Numbered from the stretch's first letter, positions 6,486-63,309 are shown. The stretch is 64,000 nucleotides of DNA from an uncultured Clostridia bacterium (GCA_947630675.1 CANRIN010000002.1:1531-65530); one strand, 5' to 3'. The notes: generated by a model from the letters alone, not told the origin. A program made the numbers and translations.

Positions 6486-7613
6486 ATGGGTATGACTTTC
6501 GACATGGATACCGGAGTAGAGGCCGGCGTCGTCATAAAAGTTCTGGGCGTTGGCGGCGGCGGCTGCAACGTCGTAAACCGCATGATAAATTCCGGGATGC
6601 ACGGCGTGGAGTTCATAGCCGTCAACACCGATATACAGGCTCTTAAAGGTTCCTCCGCCACCGAGAAGATACAGATAGGCGAAAAGCTCACCCACGGCCG
6701 CGGTGCGGGCTCCAACCCCGAGGTCGGCCGCAAGAGCGCCGAGGAGAGCCGCGCGCAGATAGCCAAGGCTCTCGAGGGCACGAACATGGTGTTCATCACC
6801 GCCGGAATGGGCGGCGGCACCGGCACCGGCGCCGCGCCGATAATTGCGGATATCGCCCGCGAGATGGGCATACTTACCGTCGGCGTCGTGACGCGCCCCT
6901 TCGCTTTTGAGGGCATGCGCCGCAGGAACCAGGCAAACGCCGGCATCGACGAGCTGCACGAGCGGGTCGACTCGCTCGTGGTCATCCCCAACGACCGCCT
7001 CCAGCACGTCAGCGAGAAGGAGATAACCTTCCTCAACGCCTTTGAGATAGCGGACGATGTGCTGCGTCAGGCCGTCCAGAGCATATCCGACCTCATCAAG
7101 GTCACCGGCCTCATAAACCTCGACTTTGCGGACGTCCAGAGCGTCATGGAGAACGCGGGATTTGCGCACATGGGCGTGGGCAGGGCCTCCGGCAAGAACA
7201 AGGCCGAGGAGGCGGCGCGCATCGCCATAGAGAGCCCGCTGCTCGAGACCTCGATAAACGGCGCGCGCGGCGTGATACTCAACATCACCGGCTCCACCGC
7301 CCTCCGCCTCGAGGATGTCACCACCGCCGCAAGCATGGTCCAGTCCGCCGTCAGCGAGGACTGCAACATCATCTTCGGCGCGGGCTTTGACGACTCGCTC
7401 GACGATGAGATCCGCATAACCGTCATAGCCACGAACTTTGTGGACGGCTCCGGCGTGAGCCATCAGGAGGCGACGAAGGCCGCAGAGCCCGCCGCCGCGC
7501 AGGATGCTCCCGCCGCCGCGCCTGCGGACGGCGGCAAGGACGCCGAGGACGACGACTGGGACCTCCTCAAGAAGATATTCGAGCAAAAGGACCGCGAGAG
7601 GGGCAAGTTCTGA
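6486..7613 (+). CDS. ftsZ: cell division GTPase FtsZ
   Basis: ATG at 6486 follows GGGGAGGAAG. Tubulin signature [13 protein letters not shown] and [10 protein letters not shown] are present. Acidic C-terminal tail. Confidence 0.97.
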
Positions 7614-23961: not shown

Positions 23962-24090
23962 TTTTCCCGACGGCGTGTATGGCGGGAAAACTCCTCTCGC
24001 GCAACGTGCGTCGAGACAGCGGAGCTGGCGAGGCGCGAAGCACAGCGCGAGGCTTCGTAAAGTTTCGCCGCGTAAGCGCCGTCCGCGCCT
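23962..24090 (-). repeat. partial copy of the long mosaic repeat (internal modules only)
   Basis: TTTTCCCGACGGCGTGTATGGCGGGAAAA, CTCTCGCGCAACGTGCGTCGAG and GAGGCGCGAAGC match modules at 31091.., 41241.. and 61889... Confidence 0.6.
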
Positions 24091-24208
24091 GTTCGCGCGG
24101 TTGAAGTTGGCGGCTTTGCCGCCAACTTCGCGCAGGCGGAATTCATTTCCGCCGAGCATTTTAATCGAAAGGGGTCCCCAAGCGGCGCAAAGCGCCGTTT
24201 GGGGAAAT
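24091..24208. repeat. three-hairpin element, copy 1
   Basis: GTTCGCGCGGTT, then H1 (24103..24129), TGCGCAGG, H2 (24135..24153), GAGCATTTTAATCGAAAGGGGTCCCC, H3 (24176..24204), then GGGAAAT. Alignable with 45402..45514 and 62165..62280. Confidence 0.8.
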
Positions 24209-24261
24209 CCCCCAACAGGAAGAACCGCGGGCTTTACGCCCGCGGTTCTTCCTGTTGGGGG
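24209..24261 (-). terminator. 24-bp perfect hairpin downstream of lacZ (terminator-like, weak U-tract)
   Basis: CCCCCAACAGGAAGAACCGCGGGC-TTTAC-GCCCGCGGTTCTTCCTGTTGGGGG. On the minus strand it is followed by ATTTCCCC. Confidence 0.45.
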
Positions 24262-24289
24262 AGTATGAAGAAAAGAAATAATCGAAATG

Positions 24290-30809: not shown

Positions 30810-30850
30810 AGCGTTCCTCCAAACTTAAAAGTCTTACCTGCCCGGTTTGT

Positions 30851-31036
30851 CAACAAAGCCTCGCAGAGAATGCGCCCGCGGACCTGTACCGCATCCGACC
30901 ATCTACCGGGCGCATCAGACCTCGGCGCTTCGCGCCGACGTCTCAACAAAGCCTCGCAGAGAATGCGCCCGCGAACCTGTACCGCATCCGACCATCTACC
31001 GGGCGCATCAGACCTCGGCGCTCCGCGCCGACGTCT
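30851..31036 (-). repeat. two tandem 93-bp units (2 mismatches) of a repeat module
   Basis: The unit CAACAAAGCCTCGCAGAGAATGCGCCC...TACCGGGCGCATCAGACCTCGGCGCTTCGCGCCGACGTCT starts at 30851 and 30944. A third start at 31037 switches to a different module. Confidence 0.9.
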
Positions 31037-31264
31037 CAACAAAGCCTCGCAGAGTTTCGCGCCAACGGCGCGAAATAAAGTCAAATCCGTAAATTTCGGC
31101 GGCGTGTACGGCGAAATTTACACCTCTCGCGGAGCGTGCGTCGATTTTCCGCCGAAGGCGGAAAACTCGGCGCGTAGCGGAGTGTTGCCGCCGGCAGGGC
31201 TTCGCTCTGTCCGACGGCCTCGCGGGAAATTGGTAAGCGAGCGAAGCGAGCGCGATTTCCCGCG
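31037..31264 (-). repeat. long mosaic repeat, full copy, directly downstream of the dapL stop
   Basis: Ordered hairpin modules AGCCTCGCAGAG / TTTCGCGCC..GGCGCGAAA / ATTTCGGCGGCGTGTACGGCGAAAT / ATTTTCCGCCGAAGGCGGAAAA / CGCGGGAAATTGGTAAGCGAGCGAAGCGAGCGCGATTTCCCGCG. About 75-80 percent alignable by eye with 41195..41378. Confidence 0.85.
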
Positions 31265-31268
31265 AAAG

Positions 31269-32474
31269 CTAAAAGTTTTCTTTTATCCGCTCGAGCGCGC
31301 GGAGCGAGTTCTCGAGCGTACCGAAGCTCGTGAGGCGGAAGTAGCCCTCGCCGCACGGTCCGAAGCCCGAGCCGGGGGTGCCGACGACCTGCGCGCGGTC
31401 GAGCAGCGCGTCAAAGAACTCCCACGAGGTCATGCCGTTCGGCGTCGCGAGCCAGACATAGGGGGAGTGTACCCCGCCGTATACCTCAAAGCCGAGGGCC
31501 TGAAGTCCCTCGCGGAGGGTCTTTGCGTTGTTCTTGTAGTAGGCGATGGACTCCATGGCCTGCTTTGCGCCCTCCGGCGTGTATATGGCCGCCGCGCCGC
31601 GCTGGGAGATGTAGCTCGCCTCGTTGAACTTGGTGGTCTGGCGGCGCGCCCACATCGCGCGGAGGCTCTGCCCGTCGAAGACAAGGTCGTTCGGTACGAC
31701 GGTGAAGCCGCAGCGCACGCCGGTGAAGCCGGCGGTCTTGGAGTAGCTGCGGAACTCGACGGCGCAGCGCTTCGCCCCGTCTATCTCGTATATCGAGCGG
31801 GGCATGTCGCCTTCGATGAAAGCGCAGTATGCTGCGTCGTAGAGTATGACCGAGCCCTCGCGGAGGGCGTAGTCGACCCACGCCTTCAGCTCGTCGTAGC
31901 CGATGTGTGCGCCGGTCGGGTTGTTCGGGAAGCAGAGGTAGATGATGTCCGCGTGCTCCTTCGGCGGCTCCGGAATGAAGCCGTTCGAGGCGACGCAGGG
32001 CATATAGATGAGCTTACTCCAGCGCTCGCCGTCAAAGTCGCCGGCGCGGCCGGCCATGGCGTTCGAGTCGACGTAGACGGGGTAGACCGGGTCGCAGACG
32101 GCGACGGCGTTGTCGCGGTCGAAGAGCTCAGCGAAGTTGCCGGTGTCGCTCTTCGCGCCGTCGTTGATGAAGACCTCCTCGAGCGCGAGGTCGACGCCGA
32201 GCGGCTTGTAGTCCTGCTCGATTATCGCACGCCGGAGGAAGGAGTAGCCGAAGTCCTCGCCGTAGCCCTTGAAGGTGGCGGCGCTGCCCATGTCCGAGAC
32301 GGCGGCGTGCATCGCGTCTATGACGGCGGGGACGAGCGGGAGCGTGACGTCTCCTATCCCGAGGCGTATGACCTCTGCGCCGGGGTGGCTCTCGAGGTAC
32401 TCGTTCGTCTTTACGCGGACGGTGTAGAAGAGGTAGTTTGACTGCATCTTGCGGAAGTTGTCATTCAGTTTCAT
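31269..32474 (-). CDS. dapL: LL-diaminopimelate aminotransferase
   Basis: 401 aa. N-terminus MKLNDNF..QSNYLF, plus SYSKTAGFTGVRCG (PLP lysine) and NNPTG. Adjacent to dapF. Confidence 0.9.
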   Translation of the reverse strand: MKLNDNFRKMQSNYLFYTVRVKTNEYLESHPGAEVIRLGIGDVTLPLVPAVIDAMHAAVSDMGSAATFKGYGEDFGYSFLRRAIIEQDYKPLGVDLALEEVFINDGAKSDTGNFAELFDRDNAVAVCDPVYPVYVDSNAMAGRAGDFDGERWSKLIYMPCVASNGFIPEPPKEHADIIYLCFPNNPTGAHIGYDELKAWVDYALREGSVILYDAAYCAFIEGDMPRSIYEIDGAKRCAVEFRSYSKTAGFTGVRCGFTVVPNDLVFDGQSLRAMWARRQTTKFNEASYISQRGAAAIYTPEGAKQAMESIAYYKNNAKTLREGLQALGFEVYGGVHSPYVWLATPNGMTSWEFFDALLDRAQVVGTPGSGFGPCGEGYFRLTSFGTLENSLRALERIKENF

Positions 32475-41171: not shown

Positions 41172-41194
41172 AAGTCTTTGCCGCAGTCCTTATA

Positions 41195-41378
41195 AGCCTC
41201 GCGGAGTTTCGCGCCGATAGGCGCGAAATAGATTAAAATCATTTTCGGCGGCGGCGTGTACGTCGCCGAAAATACCCTGCGCGTAGCGCGCGTCGAAGGC
41301 GGCGAAGCCGTCGAGGCGCGAAGCGGAGCGTTCTCGCGGCAAATTGGTAAGCGAGCGAAGCGAGCGCGATTTGCCGCG
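41195..41378 (-). repeat. long mosaic repeat, copy downstream of obg
   Basis: Same module order as 31037..31264. The segment TGGTAAGCGAGCGAAGCGAGCGCGAT is identical in both copies. Confidence 0.85.
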
Positions 41379-41403
41379 ACTTTTCTAAACGGGCCTTGCC
41401 CGT

Positions 41404-42678
41404 TTAGAAAAGATACTCAAATTCCAAATCGCCGATGCAGACGGTGTCGCCCTCCTGTATCCCCATGGCCTCGAGGCGCGCAAACATCCCGCTCGTGCGG
41501 AGCATACGTTCAAACCACATGCGGCTCTCGTAGTCGTCGAAGTTGACGCTGCCGCCGATGCGGTCTATCCAGTCGCCCTCGAGGATGTAAACGCCGTCCT
41601 CGTGGCGGACGGTGACGTCCTCCGGCCGTCCGGGCTCAAGGTCGGGCTCGACGTACTCGGGCTCGTAGTACTCCACGGGAGGCAGGTCGGCAAGGCGGCG
41701 CGCTATCGCGTATATGAGCGCCTGCACACCCATGCCGGTGGCGGCGGATATCTCGCAGACCTCGAGGCCGTGCTCCGCCGCATAGGCGCGGAATTTCGCC
41801 GCCGCCTCGTTTGTCTCGTCCGCGAGGTCGCACTTGTTCGCCGCGACTATCTGCGGGCGGGAGGCAAGAGCTTCGCTCCAACCGGCGAGCTCCGAGTTTA
41901 TCGTCTCGAAGTCCTCTACGGGGTCGCGCAATTCGCTGCCGGATATGTCGACGAGGTGGACGAGCAGCCGGCAGCGGTCGATGTGGCGGAGAAAGTCGTG
42001 GCCGAGTCCCGCGCCCTCCGCCGCACCCTCGATTATGCCGGGGATGTCGGCGAGCACAAAGCTCGTCGTCTCGTCCACGCGCACGACGCCGAGATTGGGT
42101 TGGAGGGTGGTGAAGTGGTAGTTGGCTATCTTCGGGCGCGCGGCGGAGACGACGGAGAGCAGGGTGCTCTTGCCGACGTTCGGGAAGCCGACGAGGCCGA
42201 CGTCCGCTATGAGCTTCAGCTCGAGGAGAATTTCGCGCGCCTCGCCTTTGAGGCCGTTCTTTGCAAACCGCGGTGTCTGGCGCGTCGGAGTGGCGAAGTG
42301 GCGGTTGCCCCAGCCGCCGCGGCCTCCGCGCGCCGCGACGTAGTCAGCGCCGTCCGACATGTCGTGCATGACGGCGCCGCTCTCCGCGTCCCGGACGACG
42401 GTGCCGCGCGGCACGCGTATGACGAGATCTTCGCCGTGCCGCCCGCTGCACCGCTTGCCCTGTCCGTTCTCGCCGTTCGGGGCGGCGTATTTGCGCTGAT
42501 AGCGGAAGTCCATGAGAGTCGCCATGTGGTCGTCGACGCGGAGGACGACGTTTCCTCCGTCACCCCCGTCGCCGCCGTCCGGCCCGCCGGCCGCGACGTA
42601 CTTTTCGCGGTGGAAGCTCACCGCACCGTTGCCGCCGTCTCCACCGCGTATCGAAATTTTCGCCGTGTCAATAAACAT
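41404..42678 (-). CDS. obg: GTPase Obg/CgtA
   Basis: 424 aa. N-terminus MFIDTAKISIRGGDGGNG with the glycine-rich Obg fold. G-motifs GFPNVGKST and DIPG. C-terminal TGS-like OCT domain. Confidence 0.96.
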   Translation of the reverse strand: MFIDTAKISIRGGDGGNGAVSFHREKYVAAGGPDGGDGGDGGNVVLRVDDHMATLMDFRYQRKYAAPNGENGQGKRCSGRHGEDLVIRVPRGTVVRDAESGAVMHDMSDGADYVAARGGRGGWGNRHFATPTRQTPRFAKNGLKGEAREILLELKLIADVGLVGFPNVGKSTLLSVVSAARPKIANYHFTTLQPNLGVVRVDETTSFVLADIPGIIEGAAEGAGLGHDFLRHIDRCRLLVHLVDISGSELRDPVEDFETINSELAGWSEALASRPQIVAANKCDLADETNEAAAKFRAYAAEHGLEVCEISAATGMGVQALIYAIARRLADLPPVEYYEPEYVEPDLEPGRPEDVTVRHEDGVYILEGDWIDRIGGSVNFDDYESRMWFERMLRTSGMFARLEAMGIQEGDTVCIGDLEFEYLF

Positions 42679-45374: not shown

Positions 45375-45401
45375 GTCGCGGCGAAGCCGCGCTCCGCTCC
45401 G

Positions 45402-45514
45402 GTTCGCGCGGTTGAAGTTGGTGGCAAAGCCACCAACTTCGCGCAGGGGCGATTCATTCGCCCCGAGCATTTTAATCGGAAGGGCTCCCGCGCGGTCGCC
45501 GACCGCGCGGGAAT
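45402..45514. repeat. three-hairpin element, copy 2
   Basis: H1 at 45414..45440, H2 at 45446..45464, H3 at 45487..45511. It ends 5 nt from the anti-sigma gene stop. Confidence 0.8.
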
Positions 45515-45518
45515 TGCG

Positions 45519-46517
45519 TCAAGGTTTAGGTGCGACGAACGGCTCGAAGAACATCTCGCGGCCGTCGACTATGGCGCAGTAGTTCTGCCACTCGGCCGAG
45601 CCTGGGGTGCGGCAGAGCGTCACGTCGGTCACCTGCGCCTCGTCGAGGTAACGCCCGATCGCGAGGTCGTACTGACGCGGCAGAGTCGCCGGTTCCTTCA
45701 GGGTGCCGGAGGCGTATATCCGCTCGAGCGTCGCGCCCGGTTCGGTGTGCCACACGACGAGAAAGAAGTATCCGTCGCCGAAGGTCCGGCAGATGTTCAC
45801 TGAACCGTCCGAGCACCGGGCGCTGACGGACGCGAGCTCCGCAAAGCGGTCGTCGAGCGGCGCGGTGCTGCCGAATACGGCGGTGACGTCCTCAGTCTCC
45901 GCGACGGCGACATCGTTCGGAGCCTCCGAAAACCCGGTGTGCTCGCGGAGGACGAAGCCGTCCTCCGTCCACTCGACGACGGCGAGGACAGGGGAATCGT
46001 ACCCCGCGGCCGCTGTTTCGCCTGCAAGCGGCTCGCGGCGGCGCTCGAGCAGGCAGACATACACGCATTCCGCGTCCGACCAGTCCTCCGAGGCAAAGTC
46101 TATGCCGCTGTCGAGAGAAAGCTCCTCGCGGAGCCAGAGCTGAGCCTCATTCCGAAGCTCGGTGAGGCGCGCGTGCTCGATGCCGTCAGAGCGGTCTATG
46201 CGGTCGCGGCGGAACTGCGCGTCGGCGGCGCTCGTGGGCGCGGGGTCGCCGTAGCCGAATACGCGGAGCACCGCGTCCCGGACGGCTTTGGCGGTTTCGG
46301 TCACGCTGTCGCGGACGTCCTCGCTCACGGCCATTGCCGTGCCGACGCCCGCGAGCGAGAGCAGAAGTGCCGCCGCAAGCACCGCCGCCGTCCGGCGGGC
46401 GAAGCGCACGCGGCGGGCGGGACGCGGCTTCGGTTCGCCCGGCGCGGCGGAAAGTATGAGGTCGTCATCTATATTGCTTATTGCGCGGAGCATCGCTTCG
46501 CTGTAATTTTCTTTCAT
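45519..46517 (-). CDS. putative membrane-anchored anti-sigma factor
   Basis: 332 aa. Its start overlaps the sigma gene stop (ATGA). Cytoplasmic N-terminus, then one TM helix (AAVLAAALLLSLAGVGTAMAV). The functional call rests on context only. Confidence 0.55.
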   Translation of the reverse strand: MKENYSEAMLRAISNIDDDLILSAAPGEPKPRPARRVRFARRTAAVLAAALLLSLAGVGTAMAVSEDVRDSVTETAKAVRDAVLRVFGYGDPAPTSAADAQFRRDRIDRSDGIEHARLTELRNEAQLWLREELSLDSGIDFASEDWSDAECVYVCLLERRREPLAGETAAAGYDSPVLAVVEWTEDGFVLREHTGFSEAPNDVAVAETEDVTAVFGSTAPLDDRFAELASVSARCSDGSVNICRTFGDGYFFLVVWHTEPGATLERIYASGTLKEPATLPRQYDLAIGRYLDEAQVTDVTLCRTPGSAEWQNYCAIVDGREMFFEPFVAPKP

Positions 46518-47074: not shown

Positions 47075-47186
47075 GGCGGCCTCCTTTCTCGCTTCCGGCG
47101 CGCCGCCGGGAACGGACTCAAACGGGTGTTGGCGGACTGCGGCGGAGCCTCAATGCGCCGGGTAAAGAGCTCTTTACACATATAGA

Positions 47187-47229
47187 CAACAAAAATTGCC
47201 GCGCGTTGCGCGGAACGTGCGGCAATTTT
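47187..47229 (-). terminator. terminator-like hairpin downstream of the 47348 gene
   Basis: AAAATTGCCGC...GCGGCAATTTT with 11-bp arms. The minus strand continues TGTTGTC. Confidence 0.5.
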
Positions 47230-47289
47230 GAAATGTCCAGGGATTTTTTGAGGGTGGCAGGAGGGACGACGTGCGGTTCGCTTGCCGAC

Positions 47290-47341
47290 AGCCTCGCAGA
47301 GACTGCGCCCCTCAACTCGTTACGCCCCGCGATTTCCCGCG
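47290..47341 (-). repeat. miniature copy of the mosaic repeat (both termini, one internal hairpin)
   Basis: Minus strand reads CGCGGGAAATCGCG...CTCTGCGAGGCT, starting 7 nt after the stop codon of the 47348 gene. Confidence 0.7.
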
Positions 47342-61854: not shown

Positions 61855-62164
61855 AGCCTCGCAGAGTTTCGCGCAAAGCGCGAATAATTTCAATTATTTT
61901 TCCCGACGGCATGAATGCGCCCTTCGACTTGCTACGCGTCGAAACTTTCTACCGGGCGCATCAGACCTCGGCGCTTCGCGCCGACGTCCCAACATTGTAC
62001 GAACCGTAGAGCAAAATTTACACATCTCGCGTAGCGCGCATAGATTTTCCGCCGAAGGCGGTTCCCGCATTCTAATTAGCTCAAAGTCGGGCAATATTCG
62101 CAAAGCGAATATTGCGAGCGAGGGTTGTAAAATGTCGGATGAGGAATTGGTTCGCGCCCTCGCG
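61855..62164 (-). repeat. long mosaic repeat copy (distal part of a composite element downstream of the isomerase gene)
   Basis: Starts with AGCCTCGCAGAGTTTCGCGC. Contains TACCGGGCGCATCAGACCTCGGCGCTTCGCGCCGACGTC (identical to 30904..30942) and ATTTTCCGCCGAAGGCGG. Confidence 0.8.
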
Positions 62165-62280
62165 GTTCGCAGCGGTTAAAGTTGCTTGCCATAGGCAAGC
62201 AACTTTGCGCAGGCGGAATTTATTTCCGCCGAGCATTTCAATCAAAAGGGCTCCCACGCGGCCGCCGGCCGCGTGGGAAT
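62165..62280. repeat. three-hairpin element, copy 3
   Basis: H1 at 62178..62206, H2 at 62212..62230, H3 at 62253..62277. Conserved linkers match copies 1 and 2. Confidence 0.8.
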
Positions 62281-62331
62281 GGCGAAGCGGAGCGCAAGGC
62301 ACCGGCAGAGCTCTGCTCTGTCCGGTGCCCT

Positions 62332-62376
62332 CGCAACAAATAGGTTGCGGGCGAAGCCGGCAACCTATTTGTTGCG
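62332..62376 (-). other. 17-bp perfect hairpin whose one arm is the last codons plus stop of the isomerase gene
   Basis: CGCAACAAATAGGTTGC (62332..62348) pairs with GCAACCTATTTGTTGCG (62360..62376). The stop codon (62365..62367) lies inside the arm. Confidence 0.7.
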
Positions 62377-63309
62377 AAAGTTTAGCAGCGACTTTCCGAC
62401 GGCGCACATCGCGGCGGCCGCGGCCTTCGCGACGCCGTAGTCGTATATCGGGCTCTGCCACTGGCTGTAGAAGGTGTCCGCCTCAAAGTTGAACGTGCCG
62501 GAGTAGCCGACATCCTGCATGGCGCGGCAGAACTCCGCCCAGTTGAGGCGGCCGATGCCGGGTATCTGGTGGCGGTCGGAAAGCCCGTCGTTGTCATGGA
62601 CGTGGAGCGTTACGGTCCTGTCTCCAAGCTCGCGGAGCATATTTGCGGGCCCGCTGCCGGAGATGGCGGCGTGGCCGGTGTCGAGACACGCGGCAAAGCG
62701 CTTCTCGCCGCACATATCGTTCAGCGTGTCGATAAAGTCTATCATCTGGGCGGCGGAGGAGCAGGTCGTAGGCACGAGCTTGTGCGTGTCCGGGTCGGAG
62801 GCGAACATGTTCTCGATGCAGAGAGTGACGCCGGTGTCGCGGAGCGCGGGGAACATTGCCGCATAGAACTCGAAGTTGGAGCGGCGGCACTCCTCGAGGT
62901 TCCTTCCGTAGATGAAGCTCGGATGCATCGCCGGATGTATGACTATGTGAGGACATTCCATGTACGCGGAGGCGTAGATGGAGCGTATCGCGCACTTCAG
63001 CAGCGCGGGGTCGCGCTCGTCGTCGTAGACCTTGAGCGGGAACGGGGCGTGGCACTGGTATATCCACAGCCCGCGCTCGTCCGCGAGCTTCTTCACCTCG
63101 CGGAAGTACTCGGCAAAGGACTCCTCGTCGGCAAGCGCAAAGAGGTCGCCCGTCGGCGGGAGGTGAAACATGCCGTAATCGAGCGCCTCGAAGCCCGCCT
63201 CTGCAAAGGCGTCGAACGCGGCGCGGTGGCCGAACTTGACGACGAGCTCGTGCGTGGAGGTGCTCACCATGCCGCGAGCCGTACGTCCCTTAAAATACCT
63301 GTCTGTCAT
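62365..63309 (-). CDS. sugar phosphate isomerase/epimerase (xylose-isomerase-like TIM barrel)
   Basis: 314 aa. HAPF, CIEN and TLHVHDNDG...H..PG.G are metal-ligand motifs of the family. Confidence 0.85.
   Translation of the reverse strand: MTDRYFKGRTARGMVSTSTHELVVKFGHRAAFDAFAEAGFEALDYGMFHLPPTGDLFALADEESFAEYFREVKKLADERGLWIYQCHAPFPLKVYDDERDPALLKCAIRSIYASAYMECPHIVIHPAMHPSFIYGRNLEECRRSNFEFYAAMFPALRDTGVTLCIENMFASDPDTHKLVPTTCSSAAQMIDFIDTLNDMCGEKRFAACLDTGHAAISGSGPANMLRELGDRTVTLHVHDNDGLSDRHQIPGIGRLNWAEFCRAMQDVGYSGTFNFEADTFYSQWQSPIYDYGVAKAAAAAMCAVGKSLLNFRNK

Follow-up and report, generated by a model that had tools for sequence, protein, structure and literature searches.

A modular, hairpin-rich interspersed repeat of uncultured gut Clostridia that probably acts at the level of DNA

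Introduction

A stretch of 64,000 nucleotides from an uncultured Clostridia bacterium (GCA_947630675.1, CANRIN010000002.1:1531-65530; the whole of which is referred to here as the window) contains several copies of a short non-coding element whose hairpin stems differ from copy to copy and nevertheless stay paired. The original prediction described three copies, each with a fixed relation to a minus-strand gene, and took the paired substitutions to indicate selection on an RNA or single-stranded DNA structure. The locus raises the question of whether the element is a new structured RNA or whether its perfectly paired stems have another origin.

Results

All three copies were recovered at the predicted places on the plus strand and could be aligned with one another over approximately 125 nt. 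The conserved block GAGCATTTYAATCRRAAGGGSTCCC had 3 exact matches in the 64-kb window compared to 0 in 100 dinucleotide-preserving shuffles. The three hairpins originally named (H1, H2 and H3) were predicted to form in each copy, with z-scores of -6.7 to -7.8 (RNA parameters) and -6.4 to -8.3 (DNA parameters), and with either set of parameters the reverse strand folded as stably as the forward strand. The H1 and H2 stem sequences had been quoted correctly for the three copies, as had the distances to the minus-strand stop codons (82, 5 and 85 nt for copies 1, 2 and 3, respectively). H3, by contrast, had been described as three unrelated sequences, when in fact copies 2 and 3 carry a single variant, CCC[G/A]CGCGG..CCGCG[C/T]GGG, and copy 1 has another of the common ones, CCCAA[A/G]CGGCGC... 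The blocks described as unpaired are conserved but are not wholly unpaired: part of GTTCGCGCGGTT belongs to a fourth, short hairpin designated H0 (CCGCGC-CNGTTC-GCGCGG), and the core therefore begins about 8 nt earlier (24083 in copy 1, 45394 in copy 2). Conservation between copies starts abruptly at CCGCGCC and fades past GGGAAT(TGCG), and further repeat modules flank the core on both sides.

The core cassette of copy 1 was delimited from its sequence and folds at 24083..24208 on the plus strand (covariance-model match 24072-24213, 141.8 bits). In 5' to 3' order it consists of H0 (24083-24100, CCGCGC/GCGCGG), H1 (24103-24129), the linker GCGCA (24130-24134), H2 (24135-24153, loop TTCAT), the conserved block (24154-24175), H3 (24176-24204) and a tail (24205-24208). 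In copy 2, delimited from sequence at 45394..45518 on the plus strand (model match 45383-45521, 151.1 bits), the same parts follow in order: H0 at 45394-45411, H1 at 45414-45440, H2 at 45446-45464, the block at 45465-45486, H3 at 45487-45511 and the tail AATTGCG at 45512-45518. Copy 3, likewise delimited from sequence and also on the plus strand (62157..62284; model match 62147-62287, 124.7 bits), has H1 at 62178-62206, H2 at 62212-62230 (loop TTTAT), the block at 62231-62252, H3 at 62253-62277 and a tail at 62278-62284; its 5' end is altered, with the end of an upstream module in place of the 5' arm of H0.

To establish how widely the element occurs, the conserved block was scanned against one genome per bacterial species. 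At least 94 further stretches were returned and, among the matches listed, all but one were in three rabbit-gut metagenome-assembled genomes (MAGs; CANRJS01, CANPWY01 and CANQDU01, each an 'uncultured Clostridia bacterium'); the sole match elsewhere among those listed was a chance match in a coding region. The three MAGs represent sister species, their orthologous loci being 89-95% identical, and the window is 90-91% identical to two MAG loci over two blocks of 6-7 kb, which makes them sister species of the window organism also. A covariance model was then built from a MAFFT alignment of 86 full copies. It found only the three full copies in the window (125-151 bits), while in 688 kb of loci from the MAGs (given L numbers below) there were 176 matches, of which about 140 were strong: approximately 110 canonical copies (>100 bits) and approximately 30 of a longer variant (~220 nt). 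What had been presented as a three-copy element tied to a minus-strand gene is thus a family with about 140 copies in the 0.75 Mb sampled from four sister genomes (window and loci together), and the 3 copies in 64 kb of unselected sequence imply a number of the order of 100 or more per genome. There were no matches to the element on viral contigs. The G+C content of the element is approximately 60%.

The original statement that the element matches no known RNA family was borne out, as no match was obtained in the 64-kb window at Rfam curated thresholds. Only tRNAs were found by Rfam in 18 element-rich loci, and a permissive Rfam scan of copy 1 gave only sub-threshold chance matches to hairpins. 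The consensus sequence was absent from the searchable literature, where no account of comparable repeats in Clostridia was found either; within the reach of Rfam and that literature, the repeat family is undescribed. To our knowledge, REP/RAYT-type systems are uncharacterised in this Clostridia lineage.

The relation of the element to transcription was assessed with genes called by a home-made codon model trained on long, high-GC3 open reading frames (ORFs) of the loci. Relative to the orientation of the element, the flanking genes were convergent in 43 cases, -/- in 33, +/+ in 26 and divergent in 5. The constant polarity originally proposed did not survive this comparison: co-directional contexts comprised 26 sense and 33 antisense copies (counts that come from the home-made caller and include non-independent orthologous sites), and at orthologous sites the orientation was opposite in 6 of 28 element pairs. 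In the window itself, copy 1 lies between convergent genes for a 2'-5' RNA ligase family protein and a GH2 beta-galactosidase (lacZ), and copy 2 between a convergent cation-efflux gene and a gene for a 332-amino acid protein without a Pfam match, so that each of these copies is as much 'downstream' of a plus-strand gene as of a minus-strand one. No bias was observed with respect to the majority gene strand (37:48) or to GC skew (44:58).

Copies are intergenic and lie preferentially at the 3' ends of genes, in either orientation. When each intergenic region was counted once, a copy was present in 44% of convergent, 13% of co-directional and 8% of divergent regions (P = 6e-11). The same 3'-end enrichment is seen for the pneumococcal BOX, RUP and SPRITE repeats, where it has been attributed to weaker selection downstream of genes (PMC3049150). 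The median length of intergenic regions was 530-730 nt with the element compared to 46-240 nt without it. In several places coding sequences end inside the element or its tail (L018 4090-4140, L001 3365-3433, L089 7835-7880 and window 45512-45521), so that a gene can owe its final codons or its stop codon to the element; in copy 2, the TGA (45519-45521, minus strand) of the window gene at 45519-46517 falls in the extended tail motif GAATTGCGTCA. Contigs of the MAGs also end inside the element (L004 21-162, L009 34-168, L045 1-132, L017 4284-4374, L031 7885-8000, L084 5828-5911 and L077), and since many contigs begin or end inside a copy, the family is a frequent cause of assembly breaks.

Pairing in the stems was assessed across the 86 full copies. 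Standard pairs were formed by 97.9% of stem cells, compared to 83% in shuffles and 33-45% with the partners slid; both sides had changed in 23 of 37 pairs, and the observed covariation was reached by none of 500 shuffles. The claim that paired substitutions reflect selection on structure holds in so far as structure is kept while the stems change, but not in so far as it implies independent compensatory mutations in an RNA. The stems occur as discrete variants, with at least six for H1, five for H2 (GGCGGAA, GCCCCGA, GGGGCAA, GGGGCGA and GCCGGAA, all with the loop TTCAT) and four to five for H3. Nearly all combinations of H1, H2 and H3 variants were found, and the linkers and the H2 loop are invariant across the four species. 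The 'compensatory' changes mostly represent exchange among a handful of ready-made, all-Watson-Crick variants, which are swapped in place between sister species. A few copies (L060, L072 and L086) have mismatched, and hence unpaired, arms from two variants; the presence of arms of two variants in one copy identifies them as recombinants with a breakpoint in the loop.

The types of base pair bear on which molecule is under selection. The cells of H1-H3 contained 2500 Watson-Crick pairs compared to 19 G·U, 15 A·C and 17 others. An A·C pair on one strand is a G·U pair on the other, and where selection acts on the fold of an RNA, G·U is normally tolerated on the strand of that RNA. In this family G·U is favoured on neither strand, which argues against selection on a strand-specific RNA fold, and of the two possibilities originally offered, RNA or single-stranded DNA, the DNA side fits better; the scarcity of G·U could also in part reflect recent amplification of perfect palindromes rather than DNA-level selection. 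Despite the strong covariation, neither of two generic marks of a structured RNA, tolerance of G·U and a consistent orientation to transcription, was found. Covariation as such cannot tell RNA-fold selection from the shuffling of palindromes, and the data favour shuffling. A tRNA-like or cloverleaf closure was also considered, as RNAalifold proposed a 3-bp closing helix (TCC/GGG); it was dropped because both of its sides are invariant, leaving it without covariation support.

Comparison of sister species revealed rapid turnover. One site is flanked by two tRNA genes and their terminator on one side and by a gene start on the other. L089 lacks the element at this site, L021 carries a single 174-nt unit (a short hairpin Hx, H0-H3 and the tail) and L060 an array of approximately 450 nt. 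The two adjacent tRNA genes and their terminator hairpin adjoin the polymorphic site in all three loci (L021 5836-6023, L060 237-424 and L089 1698-1885), at which 0 (L089), 1 (L021) and about 3 (L060) units were counted. At another site, the two units of L021 are matched in L089 by a solo H3-type hairpin. The core is optional within a shared composite, being absent in L089 and present in L021 and L060. Where copies are in tandem they are arranged head to tail with spacings of 117, 134 or 149-150 nt.

Individual hairpins also change in place. Over approximately 230 nt L043 and L093 are nearly identical, with H2 switched from GGGGCAA/TTGCCCC to GGCGGAA/TTCCGCC, while L012, L036 and L051 have an identical H3, including its loop, and between them carry three H1s and two H2s. 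In L082, the orthologue of copy 1 beside lacZ differs from it in its H1 and H2 variants, and a deletion between CCCCAA repeats has removed H3. The 'long' variant of the element is the canonical element with a two-hairpin module of approximately 85 nt exactly in the H2 loop; at a three-way orthologous site this module is present in one species and absent in two. The module (GGCTTTGCCCGCGAAGCGGGCAAAGC + CACGAGGGC...GCCCTCGTG) was seen in approximately 30 copies (for example L081 988-1209, L094 7087-7311 and L075 6134-6352). Window positions 47100-47330 correspond to L004 1-220, where a full core in L004 stands opposite unrelated window sequence containing another kind of repeat module; the change is a replacement of the whole region and no simple insertion.

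The core is accompanied by companion modules, which also occur without it. On the 5' side of copy 3 (61948..62156, plus strand; identified from repeat search families D5 and D12, alignments and the orthologous L078 region), a D5/D6-type module (61948-61994) and a D12-type module (61997-62044) are followed by a short hairpin. A two-hairpin module at approximately 62087-62165 on the plus strand is a relative of the 85-nt module that the 'long' variants carry within H2, and is fused to the 5' end of copy 3. On the 3' side (62282..62377, plus strand; sequence, copy listing and downstream profile), the linker GCGAAGCGGAGCGC is followed by a long hairpin with a conserved bulged T, designated H4 (62298-62329, plus strand), which recurs after many copies, and then by another long hairpin (62332-62377) extending over the stop codon of the gene at 62365-63309. 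H4 stems differ strongly from copy to copy, and the single bulged T is always at one place in the 3' arm (window 62298-62329; L012, L014 and L025), as in GCCGTCGG-CAGAGC-TCC-GCTCTG-T-CCGACGGC. A conserved asymmetry such as a bulged T is a feature used by hairpin-recognising enzymes.

The 5' side of copy 1 (23985..24082, plus strand; sequence and alignment with other composites) has a D12-like segment (..CTCTCGCGCAACGTGCGTCGA) and then short hairpins including Hx (CGCCGCGTAAGCGCCG), both on the plus strand. Between copy 1 and the lacZ stop codon there is a long, near-perfect hairpin (24209..24262, no strand assigned) which, from its sequence and an orthologue alignment, is outside the repeat family. 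Compared to its L082 orthologue (reverse strand, approximately 6640-6700), this hairpin has many stem differences with pairing kept, in flanks that are approximately 90% identical.

Two composites in the window have no core. One of these (30850..31290, plus strand; repeat search D5/D6/D12/D14 and alignment, with a weak model match at 31114-31237) consists, on the plus strand, of two copies of a 93-nt D6 unit, a P module AGCCTCGCAGAG, a D12 module, Hx, the GCGTAGCGGAG linker and an H4-type hairpin. The other (41180..41430, plus strand) has the P module, a D12 module (41249-41296), Hx and the linker. The full composite order is D6 unit(s), P module, D12 module, Hx, core(s), GCGTAGCGGAGCGC and the long hairpin H4. 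The two tandem copies of the 93-nt unit (the D5/D6/D14 module) at window 30850-31035 are 98% identical; partial units were seen at 61948-61994 and 47290-47325, and in related loci the module is often 5' of the core cassette. The 48-nt D12 module (...AAATTTACACCTCTCGCGGAGCGTGCGTCGA; window 31097-31144, 41249-41296 and 61997-62044) occurs both 5' of cores and in core-less composites. Its end (GCGTCGA and a hairpin), which is also recurrent 3' of cores, may be the site where unequal exchange adds or removes cassettes.

Signs of mobility and of a mobilising enzyme were sought next. The element has no terminal inverted repeats, the best match being 6 nt, and the single clean pair of filled and empty sites (L021 and L089) lacks an unambiguous target duplication, the one candidate being a GCGA at the two junctions. 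With IS608 TnpA and E. coli RAYT sequences as queries, tblastn against approximately 0.75 Mb of the four genomes gave chance matches only; the best of them, in L075, is a PrsA/PpiC-like protein and not a transposase. An HUH...YxxxNP motif was absent from the 3787 ORFs of at least 90 amino acids in the sampled ~0.75 Mb. A Pfam search of 148 neighbouring proteins returned diverse housekeeping functions, with no multi-copy or transposase-like family among the 25 most frequent families listed. Single-stranded DNA elements of the IS200/IS605 type show a replication-strand bias, and no bias of this kind was seen for the element. Given that no enzyme, no terminal inverted repeats, no clear target duplication and no replication-strand bias were found in the sampled DNA, active transposition is hypothetical, and recombination, slippage and deletion alone could in principle account for all of the turnover seen.

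Promoter and terminator scans around the three window copies gave nothing consistent. In copies 1 and 2 none of H1, H2 or H3 resembles an intrinsic terminator, and H3 of copy 3, read on the minus strand, has a terminator score at the level of shuffles. After H3 most copies continue with GGGAATTGCG and have no U-tract.

Discussion

We propose that the element is probably the core cassette of a family of interspersed repeats, non-coding, modular and rich in hairpins, that is specific to this lineage: a mosaic similar to REP/BIME, BOX or NIME sequences, with a mechanism at the level of DNA; DNA-level action is the most likely for the family as a whole. The cassette is of approximately 125-140 nt and has four hairpins (H0-H3) joined by highly conserved single-stranded linkers. 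Its copy number, distribution, orientation independence, Watson-Crick-only pairing, mosaic structure and turnover were directly observed. In the mechanism that we envisage, the hairpins would be extruded from single-stranded or supercoiled DNA and, together with the invariant linkers (GTTCGCGCGGTT, GCGCAG, the TTCAT loop and GAGCATTTNAATCGGAAGGGNTCC), would be recognised by a putative dedicated DNA enzyme, acting in trans, that gives rise to new copies. Homologous recombination, gene conversion and unequal exchange among copies would shuffle the hairpin variants and would expand, contract and invert arrays; the in-place swaps of stems would then be due to gene conversion as opposed to independent insertions. 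Intrastrand templating within the palindromes may also keep the stems perfectly paired. Copies would persist where they are least harmful, downstream of genes, and where they are co-transcribed the stable hairpins may secondarily stabilise or attenuate transcripts.

Transcript effects could also be the primary function of the element. As a cis-acting RNA of 3' untranslated regions, it would block 3'-5' exonucleases, attenuate read-through or provide RNase sites, and selection on the RNA fold would produce the covariation. The strong enrichment by gene 3' ends, above all between convergent genes, is as such a model would have it, as are the very stable folds and the conservation of structure while sequence changes; in a few copies (L017, L020 and, on the minus strand, copy 3) H3 is followed by a T-run in the manner of an intrinsic terminator, and side-effects of this sort are known for REP and BOX repeats (PMC3049150, PMC2817692). 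However, the element is randomly oriented to the adjacent transcription unit (26 sense, 33 antisense) and flips at orthologous sites, its long conserved linkers would read differently in the two orientations, G·U is favoured on neither strand, most copies have no U-tract, and some copies are just 5' of start codons or in head-to-tail arrays. The positional enrichment is equally explained by purifying selection against promoter insertions, as argued for pneumococcal repeats (PMC3049150), and on balance a 3' UTR RNA is unlikely. Far more improbable is that each copy is an independent gene for a small trans-acting or guide-type RNA, such as a transposon-derived guide-RNA scaffold. Conserved linkers with variable hairpins do resemble an RNA scaffold, and the element is absent from Rfam, but copies have no promoter or terminator signals, their neighbours are unrelated housekeeping genes with no associated nuclease or transposase genes nearby among the families listed, copies overlap the ends of coding sequences, and none is on a viral contig. 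The more than 100 copies, with tandem arrays and truncated and chimeric copies whose arms are mismatched (L060, L072 and L086), also speak against such a gene.

Orientation-independent function and Watson-Crick-only pairing would both be expected if the copies were host-domesticated DNA sites for a chromosomal protein (a nucleoid-associated protein, topoisomerase/gyrase or condensin loader) serving chromosome organisation or the relief of supercoils. The linkers and H2 loop are invariant in four species, copies are enriched between convergent genes, where positive supercoils accumulate, and BIMEs, to which IHF, gyrase and Pol I bind, provide a precedent (PMC2817692). This explanation is nonetheless quite unlikely, as no candidate protein was identified, whether a site has the element, and in how many copies, is poorly conserved even among species of 92-95% identity, which is unexpected for a positional role, and the elaborate nesting and shuffling look parasitic or neutral. 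A bolder form of the repeat interpretation, which we consider doubtful, is that the element is the substrate of an undescribed Clostridia mobilisation system specific for DNA hairpins, similar in function to REPIN/RAYT but using a different putative enzyme that would recognise the four-hairpin cassette via its invariant single-stranded linkers. Such a system would explain the spread of the cassette and the site-specific nesting in the H2 loop of a second module, and the stems would be exchangeable 'alleles'.

Read as a DNA-level mosaic repeat, the family offers a caution to searches for motifs: a few copies can show seemingly perfect compensatory changes that arose by the shuffling of ready-made palindromic modules, and such changes among hundreds of repeat copies need not imply RNA-fold selection. 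Its architecture is unusually elaborate: the four hairpins keep their order, the linkers are invariant, the stem variants reassort and insertions are nested within the element. The family inflates intergenic regions, marks spots of variable synteny between sister species and breaks MAG assemblies, and it might be of use as a strain-typing marker or as an entry point to the enzyme that moves the element.

The closest parallels are with known bacterial repeats. A REP sequence is a single imperfect palindrome (approximately 20-35 nt) carrying a GT(A/G)G head at its 5' end, and REPs usually alternate in orientation (PMC2817692); their palindromy is kept via paired changes, described as 'selection for complementary mutations' (PMC2817692). 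REP/BIME elements and REPINs, with their RAYT transposases, occur in Enterobacteria, Pseudomonas and Stenotrophomonas, and a cognate RAYT (Y1/HUH transposase) gene characteristically lies between two inverted copies. The present family shares with these repeats the high-copy extragenic palindromes, composite mosaic arrays, variable linkers, species specificity, fast turnover, paired changes, tandem amplification of modules and enrichment downstream of genes. It differs in having four distinct hairpins in a fixed order with long invariant linkers, in its head-to-tail arrays and in its host, which belongs to the Clostridia and not the Proteobacteria; no GTAG or GTGG head precedes any of its hairpins on either strand, and RAYT was not found in the sampled DNA. 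The BOX elements of Streptococcus pneumoniae have the arrangement boxA-boxB(n)-boxC, are present in more than 100 copies and have an uncertain mobilising enzyme (PMC3049150). They resemble the present family in being modular composites with a variable number of internal units, a tight predicted fold and an intergenic position over-represented downstream of coding sequences. BOX elements, however, have terminal inverted repeats that pair with each other (A with C) and mirror the coding strand, whereas the Clostridia element has no recognisable sequence relationship to BOX, no terminal inverted repeats and no strand bias, has discrete stem variants that reassort, and is found in an unrelated host.

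Neisserial intergenic mosaic elements (NIMEs) are built of RS units with dRS3 repeats between them, dRS3 being an inverted repeat of 20 bp that serves phage integrases. Like the present family they are intergenic arrays drawn from a library of short modules with conserved junctions, lie downstream of genes and are reshuffled by recombination; here, in contrast, the junctions are single-stranded linkers between hairpins, and no link to an integrase was seen. The defining marks of a MITE are its terminal inverted repeats and target-site duplications, often together with AT-richness (PMC3049150). The element is similar to MITEs such as Correia, RUP and Nezha in being small, non-coding, highly base-paired, multi-copy and polymorphic in presence between relatives, but its G+C content is about 60% and it has neither terminal inverted repeats nor a clear target duplication. 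Insertion sequences of the IS1397/ISKpn1 type insert into the loops of palindromic units and encode a transposase. The 'long' variants offer a parallel in the 85-nt module, a second element placed exactly within the H2 loop, although this nested module is a short, non-coding, two-hairpin repeat. Set beside these systems, the element is a new repeat family of a well-known bacterial kind and not a new structured RNA.
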